From the NCBI GenBank assembly GCA_000993685.1, contig LBWP01000002.1:7993-71992 (forward strand): a DNA stretch of 64,000 bases, written 5' to 3'. Origin of the DNA: Candidatus Woesebacteria bacterium GW2011_GWA1_39_21 (GTDB taxonomy: Bacteria; Patescibacteriota; Microgenomatia; UBA8517). Of the stretch, positions 36,436 to 61,810 are shown piece after piece. Below the pieces are notes generated by a model. It saw only the letters and a list, made by a program, of their open reading frames with translations, did not search any database and was not told the origin of the DNA. A program made the position numbers and the translations under genes. The stretch's first letter is position 1. The number at the start of each line of letters is the position of its first letter.

Positions 36436-37299
36436 TTAAAGTTCAACCAGTTCTTGTTTTTTTCCGGGTTGGGTTATCTCTGCGAGTGTGAGGTAGCGCT
36501 CAGTTGTAGAAAGCCTCTTGTGCCCTGATACTTGTGAGAGAAAGACAAGATCGACACCGGTTTTGAGGTTTTGGACAACGAAAGTTGTTCTTAAATCGTT
36601 AACAGTGTAACCTGGAATTTCTGCTTTCTGAAAGTATCTGTCGATTGCTGCTCTGATATTCCTTATTGCCAGCGGTTTTCCATTTTTGCTCACGAAAATA
36701 TATGGAGAATCTGACTTTGGCCGTTCATTAAGATATTTTTCCAACGTTAGTTTGGCTGACGAATTTAAGGGAATATCTCTTGATGCTTGAGTCGCATATG
36801 CATCAACGTGGACGGTTGCGTTTTTGATGTTTTCTTTCTTAAGCGCGGCAACTTCAGATATCCGTAGCCCGGTTTGGAGAATTAATTCTACGATTGCTGC
36901 AACTCTTGTGTCGTTTCTGACAACGTCGCGCAGAGCACGGTACTCAATTGCTGAAAGAAATTTTGGTGTTGAAGCTTCGATTTTGGGGTGGGAAACTGGG
37001 GAAGAGGGATCGCGTGAGGTGATTTTCTCATCCATGAGAAATCTGAAAAAGGTTTTAACGGCATTCAGTTTTCTTGAAACTGACTTTGGTGTATATTTTT
37101 GGGATAGCAGTTGATCACGAAAACCTTCAACATCGGTGGATTCGACAAGATCAGGCATCACTTTGTTCTTGCCGGTTAAATAGTCGACTAACTGTTCTAA
37201 ATCTGCTCTATAGGCTAGAATTGTTGAAGGCGATCTATTTTTATCTTTTAGGTTTTGGATAAATTTTGGCAGAAGATTTTTTAAGGTATCTTGTGGCAT
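36436..37299 (-). CDS. XerC/XerD-like tyrosine recombinase
   Basis: SPSTILAYRADL, TGLRISE, NDLRTT (HxxR variant), GH..STTERY. Confidence 0.88.
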   Translation of the reverse strand: MPQDTLKNLLPKFIQNLKDKNRSPSTILAYRADLEQLVDYLTGKNKVMPDLVESTDVEGFRDQLLSQKYTPKSVSRKLNAVKTFFRFLMDEKITSRDPSSPVSHPKIEASTPKFLSAIEYRALRDVVRNDTRVAAIVELILQTGLRISEVAALKKENIKNATVHVDAYATQASRDIPLNSSAKLTLEKYLNERPKSDSPYIFVSKNGKPLAIRNIRAAIDRYFQKAEIPGYTVNDLRTTFVVQNLKTGVDLVFLSQVSGHKRLSTTERYLTLAEITQPGKKQELVEL

Positions 37300-54626: not shown

Positions 54627-54650
54627 ATCGTTTCTGAAATGGCAAGTTAT

Positions 54651-54689
54651 AACAGCTTTCAAGAAGACCCCGATTTAATCGGGGATGAA
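54651..54689 (+). mobile_element. Isolated IS200/IS605-type left end
   Basis: TTAT|AACAGCTTTCAAGAAGA-CCCCGAT-TTA-ATCGGGG-ATGAA. Confidence 0.6.
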
Positions 54690-54725
54690 TAGTGTTTTAA
54701 GATTTACGTTCGATTTTCATAAATT

Positions 54726-54936: not shown

Positions 54937-55129
54937 AACAGCTTTCAAGAAAACCCCACCCTTAAGGGCGGGGGTGACCCGCCTGCTTAGCTGCGCAAGC
55001 TGCGGGCTGGATTGAACTCTGAAAATGCGTATGAAGAGTCAAGCTTTGCTTTTGATAAAGTCTTAAGCTTTGCTTATATATCATCCCCCTTGGGGAAACC
55101 CCCGCTTTTTTAAGCGGGGAGAATGTCAT
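54937..55129 (+). mobile_element. Non-autonomous IS200/IS605-type element with left and right ends
   Basis: TTAT|AACAGCTTTCAAGAAAA-CCCCACCC-TTAA-GGGCGGGG ... CCCCGCTT-TTTT-AAGCGGGG-AGAATGTCAT. Confidence 0.7.
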
Positions 55130-58595: not shown

Positions 58596-59267
58596 ATGAT
58601 TAAAACCATCAGGGATGAGTATGGTTTAGTCTCCCCGCAAGTGCTTGGTGTAATGTTGAAAGTTCCACGGCACGAATTTGTCCCAAAAGGGTTTCAAAAA
58701 GTTGCTTACGAAGACAAGCCGATCGAAATTGGTTTTGGGCAGACGATGAGCCAACCTTACACTGTTGCAATGATGACACATCTTGCAACAGAAATTCCAA
58801 ATACCAAATACCAGTTTTCAAACAGATTGCAAAATACAAATAGAACGAGTGGTAAGATAAAAAGACGTAAAGTTTTGGAAATTGGAACAGGGTCGGGTTA
58901 CCAGGCGGCGCTTCTGTCTTATTTTTTTGACGAGGTTTATACAATAGAAATCATTCCCCAATTGTCGGAATTTGGTAGAAACAATCTTTTCCGGTTGGGG
59001 TATAAAAATGTTTTCGTCAGAGAGGGAAGCGGAGAATACGGATGGAAAGAAAAATCTCCTTTTGACGCAATAATAATTACCGCCGCACTTGAGAAAGACC
59101 TACCGCCAGTTCTGAAAACCCAACTTGTTAAAGGTGGAATTTTAGTGGCCCCGATTGGACCGCGGTATTCGCAGGTTATGACCAGATTTGCGAGGTTAAA
59201 AAACGGGAAATTTAAAAAGGAGGAATTCCAGAAGTTTGTTTTTGTACCTTTTGTAAGAAACGAATAA
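58596..59267 (+). CDS. pcm: Protein-L-isoaspartate O-methyltransferase
   Basis: VPRHEFV, GQTMSQP, VLEIGTGSGYQAA, PFDAIIITAA, FVP. Confidence 0.93.
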   Translation: MIKTIRDEYGLVSPQVLGVMLKVPRHEFVPKGFQKVAYEDKPIEIGFGQTMSQPYTVAMMTHLATEIPNTKYQFSNRLQNTNRTSGKIKRRKVLEIGTGSGYQAALLSYFFDEVYTIEIIPQLSEFGRNNLFRLGYKNVFVREGSGEYGWKEKSPFDAIIITAALEKDLPPVLKTQLVKGGILVAPIGPRYSQVMTRFARLKNGKFKKEEFQKFVFVPFVRNE

Positions 59268-59828: not shown

Positions 59829-60389
59829 ATGCAACTAATAGTAGGACTTGGTAATCCAGGGGAGAGGTACAAAAATGCAAGACACAATACAGGGTTTTTA
59901 GTTTTAGAAAAAATAAAAACCGAATTAGCCAAATCGCAATTTTCAATTTCCAAACAAATAACAAATAACAATTTTCGGGAGGAAAACAGGTTTAAGGCCG
60001 AAGTATTGAAACTGGGCAATGTAATGTTAGCAAAACCCACAACGTTTATGAATGACTCCGGCCTTGCAGTTTCAAAAATCGCTAATTTTTATAAGATTGC
60101 TCTGGGTGATATCTACGTTATTCACGACGATTTGGACCTTCGTTTGGGCGAATACAAAATTCAAAAAGGAGTTGGTCCAAAACTGCATTACGGAATTGCG
60201 TCAATAGAAGAGAAACTTGGAAGTAAGGATTTTTGGAGAGTGCGGGTTGGTATTGACAGCAGAACGGTCGAAAACAGATTGTCTGGCGAAGAGTATGTTT
60301 TGCAAAATTTTAATGAGCAGGAAGAGGAAGTTTTTGAGGCGACTCTGGAAAGATTAACAGATGAGTTATTTAAAATGATTTTTAAGTGA
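59829..60389 (+). CDS. pth: Peptidyl-tRNA hydrolase
   Basis: LIVGLGNPG, RHNTGF, KPTTFMNDSG, IHDDLD, RVRVGI. Confidence 0.96.
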   Translation: MQLIVGLGNPGERYKNARHNTGFLVLEKIKTELAKSQFSISKQITNNNFREENRFKAEVLKLGNVMLAKPTTFMNDSGLAVSKIANFYKIALGDIYVIHDDLDLRLGEYKIQKGVGPKLHYGIASIEEKLGSKDFWRVRVGIDSRTVENRLSGEEYVLQNFNEQEEEVFEATLERLTDELFKMIFK

Positions 60390-60395
60390 ATTTAA

Positions 60396-60698
60396 ATGAC
60401 GGGTGCAAAAACATTTTCTACGGTCGGCGATGTTTTACAAAAATTCAATAAAAATGAAGACAAATACATCAGCCGCGAATTTCAGAAGTATGCTTACGGT
60501 CTTGCGAGAGAGTTGAATGATTTGGAACATAAATCGCTCTACATGAGATTGGCTAAAAATACCCCGAGGCCGCTTCTTGAAGTTGCTCGAAGTTTTGTCA
60601 AAGATGCTTATCAAGTAAAATCAAAAGCCAGATTGTTTATGTGGAAGCTTGCGAAGCTGAAAAGCGAGAAAGTTGACACACAAGAGGGGCGCAGGTAA
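60396..60698 (+). CDS. Conserved hypothetical protein
   Basis: ISREFQ.Y..LA.ELND..HKSLYMRLAK..LFMWKL. Confidence 0.75.
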   Translation: MTGAKTFSTVGDVLQKFNKNEDKYISREFQKYAYGLARELNDLEHKSLYMRLAKNTPRPLLEVARSFVKDAYQVKSKARLFMWKLAKLKSEKVDTQEGRR

Positions 60699-60827
60699 TA
60701 ACCGAGAACTCTTATGTGGAAGCTGAGCGAGTTAAGACGAGCGAAGCGCTCACTCAAGAGGAGTTGAGCGAAGCGAAAATCTCTTATCTGGAGGTTAAAG
60801 AAATTGAAAGAAGAAAATAATTCTTAA
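60637..60827 (+). repeat. Three tandem variants of the gene's 3' end separated by conserved hairpins
   Basis: TTAT junctions at 60637, 60712, 60784 give FMWKLAKLK, LMWKLSELR, LIWRLKKLK; linkers CAAGAGG..CGARAA(T)CTCTTAT. Confidence 0.7.
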
Positions 60828-60841
60828 TTAGCTGTTTTTTT

Positions 60842-61810
60842 ATGTCTTTACAAGGTAATTGGGTAGATTTAGTAATAATCCTAGTTCTGCTGTATTTCTT
60901 TCTTGATTCTTTTAGACATAATTTTTTTGTCATTTTGATTGAGTTCCTTTCGTTTTTGATATCTCTTCTTTTGGGAATCCGTTTTTATAATCAGGTTGCA
61001 AAACTATTTTCTGTAAACTTTTCAATATCGACAACAGTTTCAAAGCCAGTCGGCTTTTTCATTACCGTTGCCATCACCGAGTTATTTGTTGCGGCCCTGA
61101 TGTTTTACATTTTGAAAAAACTTCCCGCATACATAAAAAATTTAAAGACACTCAAATATTATAAATTTATTGTTGGACTATTGGATGGTCTACTGATCAT
61201 CTCCTTTCTTATTCCATTGGTACTTTCATTTCCGGTTCCGACCTTGATTAAAGACAGTATTGCAGGTTCAAAAATCGGAAATTTTATTTACACCAACACA
61301 ATAGTTTTTGAGAGAAATTATAAAGATATTTTTGGGGGTGTAGTTGAAGAGGGGATGAATCTTTTAACCGTTAAGCCGGAAAGTAGCACCAGTGTTCCGT
61401 TAAATGTTAAGAGTGTAAGTTTAACGATTGATTATGAAAGTGAAAACAATATGGTTAATTTAGTTAATTTAGAAAGAAAAAAGGTTGACGTCGCGCCTTT
61501 GGCAGTAAGACCCGAGATAGTTGAAATTGCTAGAAACTACGCGAAAGAAATGTGGCAACGCAGTTATTTCTCCCACTACTCACCAGAAGGAGAAGATGTT
61601 GCCGACAGATTGGGGAAGGCAGGGGTTTCTTTCCGAGTGGTGGGGGAAAATTTAGCACTGGCTCCGACACTTCTTGTTGCACATACAGGGTTGATGAATT
61701 CCGAGGGTCACAAAAAAAATATTTTAGACGTAGCATATCGCCAAGTAGCAATTGGTGTAGTTGACAATGGGATTTACGGCAAGATTTTTGTGCAGATTTT
61801 CACCGATTAG
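60842..61810 (+). CDS. CvpA + CAP/SCP domain protein
   Basis: NWVDLVII N-terminal TMs; VNLER, YFSH.SPEG, GENLA, LMNSEGHKKNIL. Confidence 0.9.
   Translation: MSLQGNWVDLVIILVLLYFFLDSFRHNFFVILIEFLSFLISLLLGIRFYNQVAKLFSVNFSISTTVSKPVGFFITVAITELFVAALMFYILKKLPAYIKNLKTLKYYKFIVGLLDGLLIISFLIPLVLSFPVPTLIKDSIAGSKIGNFIYTNTIVFERNYKDIFGGVVEEGMNLLTVKPESSTSVPLNVKSVSLTIDYESENNMVNLVNLERKKVDVAPLAVRPEIVEIARNYAKEMWQRSYFSHYSPEGEDVADRLGKAGVSFRVVGENLALAPTLLVAHTGLMNSEGHKKNILDVAYRQVAIGVVDNGIYGKIFVQIFTD

Follow-up and report, generated by a model that had tools for sequence, protein, structure and literature searches.

Mobile hairpin DNA repeats that occupy gene ends in ultra-small groundwater bacteria

Shufflons consist of invertible segments with an adjacent recombinase. 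Integrative elements can restore the 3' end of the gene they enter (through attP fragments of tRNA or protein genes), bringing a replacement terminus and displacing the native end. Integron cassettes are stackable, and their downstream attC site, with core triplets GTT/AAC, pairs with the unit's own start. REP, BIME and REPIN repeats and their RAYT (TnpA-REP) proteins are described, the 'double foot' REPs of subclass 2.4 among them, as short imperfect hairpins with a conserved 5'-foot tetranucleotide and a 3'-foot near-complement (PMC8266576, PMC3337134, PMC6006769, PMC3733652). TnpA-REP needs mismatches in the stem (PMC8266576), and REPINs are described as vertically inherited. For IS200/IS605 elements, capture of flanking DNA is regarded as possible (PMC10055086), and NTS/SRM repeats are CGTC-tagged extragenic single-stranded DNA (ssDNA) hairpins in competent bacteria that have small GIY-YIG (SsnA) genes (PMC11893778). 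Natural competence has been shown for Saccharibacteria, and com genes are conserved across the CPR (PMC10633639). No published description of the repeat family presented here was found in the main texts of the largely open-access literature searched.

We analysed a window, that is, one whole stretch of DNA of 64,000 nucleotides, from Candidatus Woesebacteria bacterium GW2011_GWA1_39_21 (contig LBWP01000002.1). A small gene in this window, referred to below as the target gene, ends in FMWKLAKLKSEKVDTQEGRR followed by a stop codon, and two spare tails follow downstream, LMWKLSELRRAKRSLKRS (60711-60767) and LIWRLKKLKEENNS (60783-60827), each with its own stop and all in one reading frame. The first-pass annotation had claimed that the three tails share a codon phase and are joined at TTAT, and this was borne out by the sequence; the linker before each spare tail is also as first described. 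The TTAT junctions start at 60637, 60712 and 60784, giving unit lengths of 75 and 72 nt. The features of the locus are as follows.

59829-60389, plus strand: pth, peptidyl-tRNA hydrolase, the upstream neighbour of the target gene (Pfam PF01195, E 1.7e-49).
60396-60698, plus strand: the target gene, encoding a small conserved helical protein of 100 aa whose C-terminal tail is supplied by unit 1.
60637-60711, plus strand: unit 1, 75 nt, with the TTAT junction, a tail-coding hairpin (60637-60683), CAAG (60681-60684), a second hairpin with the stop codon (60696-60698) and a closing C; defined from the sequence, an alignment of 33 units and covariation.
60712-60783, plus strand: unit 2, 72 nt, of a second unit type, encoding the spare tail LMWKLSELRRAKRSLKRS and its stop, with CAAG at 60755-60758; defined by linker comparison.
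60784-60827, plus strand: the last tail, IWRLKKLKEENNS and a stop, beginning ATC instead of ATG.
60842-61810, plus strand: a gene with CvpA and CAP domains (Pfam PF02674 and PF00188), the downstream neighbour, starting 14 nt past the stop of the last tail.

We infer that the last tail is the displaced native C-terminus, by analogy with a pair of related genomes (L180 and L027, described below); it is rich in A and K like the tails of relatives that have no unit. An assembly artefact was ruled out, as the whole stretch lies in one contig in runs X3, X5 and X8, of which X3 and X8 are flagged as near-identical and are possibly the source of the assembly, and a contig of run X13 spans the three tails.

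Matches to the target protein are present in 119 of the 125 family genomes and, across the class, in 171 of 201. It has no named family, searches of Pfam and NCBIfam giving no family match, and its closest named homologs come from Candidatus Woesebacteria. Its predicted structure (pLDDT 82) has the RNA-binding domain 2w4s as its top structural match, a weak one (Z 7.4, rmsd 2.0, 63 residues). Comparison with the PHAX-type RNA-binding domain gave Z scores of 7.4 and 5.9, a range common among small helical domains, and Foldseek and profile searches gave no match. The protein thus far shows only a weak resemblance to an RNA-binding helical domain. The protein is at times fused to 3-methyladenine glycosylase, Pth or DUF72, and in relatives the genes downstream of it or fused with it are often those of DNA alkylation repair (MGMT-like, 3-methyladenine glycosylase, DUF72), which offers a lead on its function. 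In-frame low-complexity insertions of a 7-nt repeat occur in the window at 58790-58845, in a pcm-like gene, and at 59930-59980, in pth; in three relatives (L018, L020 and L021), the four-helix-bundle genes that follow the target gene have similar repeats at their flanks.

Each unit is laid out as TTAT, a tail hairpin, CAAG, a second hairpin and C. The CACACAAG segment pairs with TTATGTG, so that every tail is itself a hairpin. In 33 aligned units, 92.7% of cells in the tail hairpin were paired and 11 cells had changed on both sides, compared to 3.3 in shuffled alignments; none of 500 shuffles scored as high, and slid controls were 24-63% paired. The structure of the unit rests on this covariation; folding of single sequences from the window was unremarkable (z 0.6 to -2.0). 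CAAG was invariant in all 33 aligned units at the target gene and is also present in the cores found at other targets. The stem carries an A.C mismatch that was likewise invariant (33/33), tandem G.A pairs were common, and the left junction was TTAT in 23 and TCAT in 10 of the 33 units; two of the 33 rows in the alignment behind the mismatch and junction counts are mis-anchored, and the pairing count above is the clean one. From CAAG onward, the linker of unit 2 is identical to that of two genomes of other genera (G018 and G035). No open reading frame was found between tails among the loci listed from the 110 in which it was looked for, nor any cargo or endonuclease gene. The CACACAAG segment could instead pair with the next TTATGTG, in which case an excised circle would form a closed rod.

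The linker is no chance occurrence: its pattern was matched in 10 of 125 family genomes, in eight of them at the 3' end of the target gene, with four matches for a backwards control. Of the 119 family genomes with the target gene, 110 were examined at the end of that gene. Counted by eye, 15 had at least one complete junction, seen either as an array of 2-7 tails or as a linker closed by TTAT; a partial linker was present in five and none in 90. A metagenome scan gave 111 pattern matches, 35 of them with the target gene. On a gene tree of 165 rows, built from the sequence upstream of the tail and hence from a short alignment, with metagenome rows chosen for having the linker, the 41 filled rows are scattered and need 33 label changes compared to a shuffled mean of 36.7, and at least 14 changes are forced by well-supported branches. 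Filled alleles were also present in a Levybacteria clade (L184, L272) and in the clade of another family. Three records titled Gammaproteobacteria (L265, L280 and L282) have the linker pattern; L265 carries a Woesebacteria-type gene and unit, and the titles are probably wrong.

A 74-nt unit has been gained or lost between close relatives, in a direction that the pairs do not fix. L180 and L027 share 93% identity across the 1.7 kb upstream and 99% downstream, and a single clean 74-nt unit sets them apart; the only tail of L027 is the last tail of L180 except for two bases. At 19 loci, units matched the native tail of their own genome at 11.2 of 18 nt and those of other genomes at 10.4 of 18 nt, indicating that units are not copies of their host's tail and are foreign to it. 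The displaced native end in L180 and L027, and the units' being no closer to their own native tail, support the serial replacement of 3' ends that the first-pass annotation had offered as one of two readings. Its other reading, a shuffling of C-termini by recombination, stood in part: between near-identical strains (L127, L183/L204 and G035) units differ in number and order, resulting in a different protein tail, and one unit of L183 is a hybrid of two, which shows that arrays are reshaped by ordinary recombination between repeats as well, a point against the transposase-based explanation proposed below. The notion of a shufflon kept by the host was not supported, as set out below, and junction switching was not seen in contigs of 8 of the 20 runs listed, a material from which rare variants drop out. 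We conclude that the units are real, recurrent and mobile.

The CAAG-hairpin-CTTAT core is not peculiar to the target gene and was found at other gene ends, in both sense and antisense orientation. A one-locus element was first suggested by a sequence-only model of the units at the target gene, which gave strong matches at the end of that gene only in 150 class genomes, and in 401 phylum genomes the inner hairpin of these units was found in G035 only, apart from one likely chance match; looser core patterns then showed the family, and the one-locus reading was rejected. Among the targets are the 5' ends of tRNA-Lys, -Ala, -Arg, -Ser and -Phe genes, the starts of rplK and ssb (antisense), and the ends of rpsD and other genes; the same architecture at the tRNA-Lys 5' end was reached by following a third hairpin type. 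A target-free pattern gave 25 matches in 125 genomes compared to 7 in controls. Its contexts included tRNA-Lys and tRNA-Ala (antisense), an antisense copy at the rplK start that goes with a displaced N-terminus and, in two genomes, the 3' end of another protein with covarying arms, the gene names being assigned by inspecting translations. One core type was matched 21 times, in 15 of the 139 order genomes, and never in a backwards control; these copies lie at tuf, rpsD, rplK and other genes as well as at tRNA ends. One early core pattern was too loose, and its matches were mostly due to chance.

A scan of the genome for the linker element had been proposed at the outset, and in the genome of the window CAAG-hairpin-CTTAT cores were indeed found at other loci. 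A loose scan gave six matches and six in controls, and a strict scan one and none; a broader core pattern gave seven matches besides unit 1 and none in its control, a count that leaves out unit 2, which a later pattern also finds. Four of the seven lie in copies of one miniature insertion sequence (IS), and antisense members adjoin two other genes, an HTH gene at its 3' end and ssb at its start. Another genome, G691, has about 20 units in arrays of up to 6-7; its array at the end of rpsD comprises six units, one with the linker type of unit 2 of the window, and a generic unit is repeated at several of its loci, inserted after ..AT without duplication. Away from the target gene, 36 of 90 distinct cores repeat their right flank upstream, and in these 36 arm and unit start are paired in 122 of 216 cells, where shuffling gives 68.6 +/- 6.2 and at most 90. 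Because the strand of the copies does not follow transcription, the family works on DNA. It consists of mobile repeats that sit in the ends of protein-coding and tRNA genes in ultra-small groundwater bacteria and often bring a substitute for the end they disrupt, and it is not a host shufflon. Viral contigs contained no linker, no core and no homolog of the target protein, so an Atlas hint at members in phages was not borne out. At L525, the middle of a gene for a 570-aa membrane protein contains a unit in frame. At five other loci (L324, L329, L342, L327 and L330), tRNA-Leu, -Arg and -Gln genes are preceded by 5' fragments that hairpin inserts of another type interrupt, some of them beside small GIY-YIG genes.

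The miniature IS is represented in the window by two further features.

About 54937-55128, plus strand: an IS200/IS605-type miniature element, with a remnant at about 54648-54690.
55040-55077, plus strand: a CAAG-hairpin-CTTAT core of the same family, inside this element, found with the core pattern.

The element has two ends and occurs in an empty form of about 105 nt and a filled form of 193 nt. In this genome its left end follows TTAT in 21 of 22 cases, one being cut by a contig end, and the terminal sequence is TCAT in 15 of 16. One pair of ends encloses a 179-aa NUDIX-like open reading frame (G000:C30), and no transposase for the element was found. In G691, an element of this type stands directly after the CTTAT of a unit. 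As TTAT and TCAT are also the two junctions of units at the target gene, we counted their use by the miniature IS toward a link with Y1 enzymes.

The two inserts are units of a small hairpin DNA repeat family (TTAT-arm-loop-arm-CAAG-hairpin-C), and on balance they are probably non-autonomous cassettes, cut and pasted as ssDNA at xxAT by a Y1 HUH transposase acting in trans. This proposal would join the anatomy and covariation, the other targets on both strands, the gain or loss between close relatives and the exchange of tails between strains. Cutting after xxAT at both ends would yield a closed rod with CAAG paired to the unit's own start. A core landing just beyond a gene end would take up host DNA as far back as an upstream xxAT, and the resulting unit would bear a tail and have an arm that fits the gene. 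Re-insertion of this unit at its gene would restore the protein and displace the old tail, and repeated insertion would stack units. Uptake of DNA, followed by recombination across short flanking stretches, may also carry filled alleles from one lineage to another. The spare tails would be a by-product that makes insertion in a conserved gene tolerable, and not a switch kept by the host.

Three classes of candidate enzyme were compared: RAYT-like Y1 proteins, small GIY-YIG proteins and tyrosine recombinases. A shorter, related CAAG..CTT hairpin was found within 120 nt of 23 of 71 RAYT-like genes compared to 8 of 600 control genes, and it flanks 2 of 22 small GIY-YIG genes and none of 6 Xer-like genes. 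An enzyme gene flanked by the exact core was sought and none was found, which we counted against a Y1 enzyme. Of the 125 family genomes, 66 have Y1 genes, and of the 20 that bear units only 14 do, a weak co-occurrence; TnpB was not found in five genomes. The only Y1 match in the genome of the window, whose assembly is 92% complete, is a 453-aa fusion that by eye lacks the usual catalytic tyrosine motif, so that this assembly shows no convincing active Y1 enzyme or TnpB. This frame (G000:C13:16065-17423, L436) appears by eye to combine a Y1 HUH-like domain, a long linker, a hydrophobic segment and an SH3-like end; similarly long Y1 frames (about 380-460 aa) occur in several relatives, and the long fusion is possibly a domesticated, non-catalytic form. 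RAYT-like Y1 genes of about 225 aa (L402-L460, L607-L625) group by their flanking palindrome into a CAAGG..CCTT type and a CACC..GGTG type. One locus lies beside a Y1 gene (L384), and the first flank test, which gave a single locus, did not bear this out as a general link. With respect to local GC skew, units at the target gene lie on the G-rich strand in 29 cases versus 3, and those at other targets in 15 versus 30, indicating no lagging-template bias. The base after CTTA followed no simple guide rule across core types, and no circles or excised junctions were observed.

Homing-type converted flanks were found in both of the filled/empty close pairs. They suit the recombination proposed above for part of the spread; they are not expected from clean transposition and count against it, on the strength of these two pairs: L180 and L027 have no differences in the far 141 nt and four in the 45 nt adjoining the site, and L171 and L053 have one far from the site and 14 near it. 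Four other close pairs showed 0-1 differences near the site and no clustering, and in pairs differing only in the first unit conversion was not seen within 45 nt, L127 and G035 having no differences over that distance. Converted flanks would suit an alternative that we regard as unlikely, in which the hairpins are sites of small single-domain GIY-YIG ssDNA nucleases (Ssn-like) and short fragments of incoming or replicating ssDNA, cut beside them, recombine into a homologous gene end, spreading and duplicating units by gene conversion without a transposase. Inner hairpin motifs were present beside 5 of 18 small GIY-YIG genes compared to 1 of 56 Y1 genes and 6 of 600 controls, and SsnA is described as cutting ssDNA near hairpin repeats and modulating transformation (PMC11893778). 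In the same paper, however, SsnA lowered integration, the CAAG..CTT stem flanks only the two small GIY-YIG genes of 22 mentioned above, and a nuclease alone would give no account of generic units at unrelated xxAT sites that lack homology.

The pairing of the arm with the unit's own start also recalls a cassette circle, and mixed units are stacked in variable order. Tyrosine recombinases are present in all 125 family genomes, mostly two in each. The units could then be gene-less integron-like cassettes, with CAAG..CTTAT as an attC-like folded site for a tyrosine recombinase of the Xer/IntI type, but we consider this quite improbable: the triplet is CTT/AAG and not GTT/AAC, cargo genes are absent between the tails, the recombinase in the window lies 23 kb off, and the integron-integrase model TIGR02249 gave 47 bits compared to a cut-off of 265. 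The target gene is 66-162 kb from dnaA in five closed genomes and so does not mark dif. An element exploiting dif and Xer was rejected on the same distances (genomes of 0.8-1.3 Mb), together with the lack of a GC-skew switch on the contig of the window. The recombinase in the window, at 36439-37299 on the minus strand, is a second Xer-like one, its best model being XerA_Arch below cut-off; in many family genomes it lies about 15-35 kb upstream of the target gene.

At the target gene the hairpins are on the mRNA strand and contain an SD-like GAGGAG as well as tandem G.A pairs. Every spare tail has an ATG from which it can start, the window's last tail with its ATC excepted. At five filled loci there is a 4-nt overlap between the last tail and the next start; the coupling test behind this figure is noisy (about six rows wrongly called filled, some starts missed), and single rows only are quoted from it. 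These features would fit a structured RNA cassette whose retention at the target gene serves translational coupling or mRNA stability, an explanation that we hold to be very unlikely. Several genes (rplK, ssb, tRNA genes and an HTH gene) have a family member in antisense, the window's last tail ends 14 nt before the next gene as well as starting with ATC, Rfam gave no match at gathering score, and there is no trace of a unit at 90 of the 110 family loci. The antisense copies argue against an RNA role as the general explanation, and coupling may be a side effect at some loci.

Scarcely credible is a host-maintained shufflon-like switch, or plain local slippage, as the source of alternative C-termini: the tails are in register, the first tail differs between strains and the arrays of L052, L114 and L015 contain near-identical tandem copies, but the units are direct repeats foreign to the host's native tail, the same core is found at tRNA genes and in antisense, no recombinase gene is adjacent, and linker identity averages 0.82 across hosts compared to 0.40 at third codon positions, the two showing no positive correlation over 492 ungapped, non-independent pairs.

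The unit could be a self-targeting ssDNA mini-element, a closed rod of 50-105 nt whose arm directs it, as a DNA guide, to one gene end and which brings along the stretch needed to mend that end; we put this forward tentatively. Such an element would allow a parasite to settle harmlessly in essential genes (tRNAs, rplK, rpsD, ssb), to move between genera and to change its target by taking up another piece of host DNA. It would make cassette genesis visible and would be a natural counterpart, with protein-free cargo, of programmable insertion. Were the arm to guide insertion, the cognate enzyme would be a compact DNA-guided integrase. The family rewrites the termini of conserved genes in streamlined Patescibacteria genomes and explains spare tails, duplicated tRNA ends and odd termini in Patescibacteria annotations. 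Its units are ready substrates for studying how REP-like repeats spread and how cassettes capture host DNA.

Among described systems, the units appear to work most like REP/REPIN/BIME repeats with chemistry of the IS200/IS605 type. The two share short imperfect hairpins with a 5'-foot tetranucleotide and a 3'-foot near-complement, a conserved stem mismatch, dispersed copies, tandem mosaic arrays and a lack of coding capacity (PMC8266576, PMC3337134, PMC6006769, PMC3733652), and the invariant A.C mismatch of the units recalls the stem mismatches that TnpA-REP needs. The tag, however, is CAAG and not the GTAG/GTGG or CGTC of REPs. Unlike REPs, the units have few copies per genome and sit in gene ends with a replacement terminus, and one arm matches each target; they also show signs of transfer between lineages, whereas REPINs are described as vertically inherited. 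With IS200/IS605 elements and PATEs the units share a tetranucleotide junction (TTAT/TCAT, common to the resident PATE-like element), hairpins and guide-type DNA pairing. They lack the separate left and right ends of such elements, each with a subterminal hairpin and guide, and have instead TTAT-type junctions on both sides and one tagged hairpin; they also have no TnpA or TnpB and no strand bias. IS200/IS605 elements insert 3' of a tetranucleotide without target duplication. Among the units, host sequence is often duplicated, 36 of the 90 cores repeating their flank; generic units follow ..AT without duplication. Like integron cassettes, the units are stackable and have an arm that pairs with their own start, but their core triplet is another one, no integrase or attI platform accompanies them, and their chromosomal targets are many and separate. 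They bring a replacement terminus and displace the native end like the end-restoring integrative elements, but measure only 50-105 nt and have no integrase or cargo. In contrast to shufflons, they are direct rather than inverted repeats, and the neighbours are pth and the cvpA-CAP gene. They resemble NTS/SRM repeats as ssDNA hairpin repeats in bacteria with small GIY-YIG genes; NTS are not known to replace gene ends (PMC11893778). Replacement of the gene end, together with arms matched to the target, is what distinguishes these units among hairpin-based non-autonomous elements.
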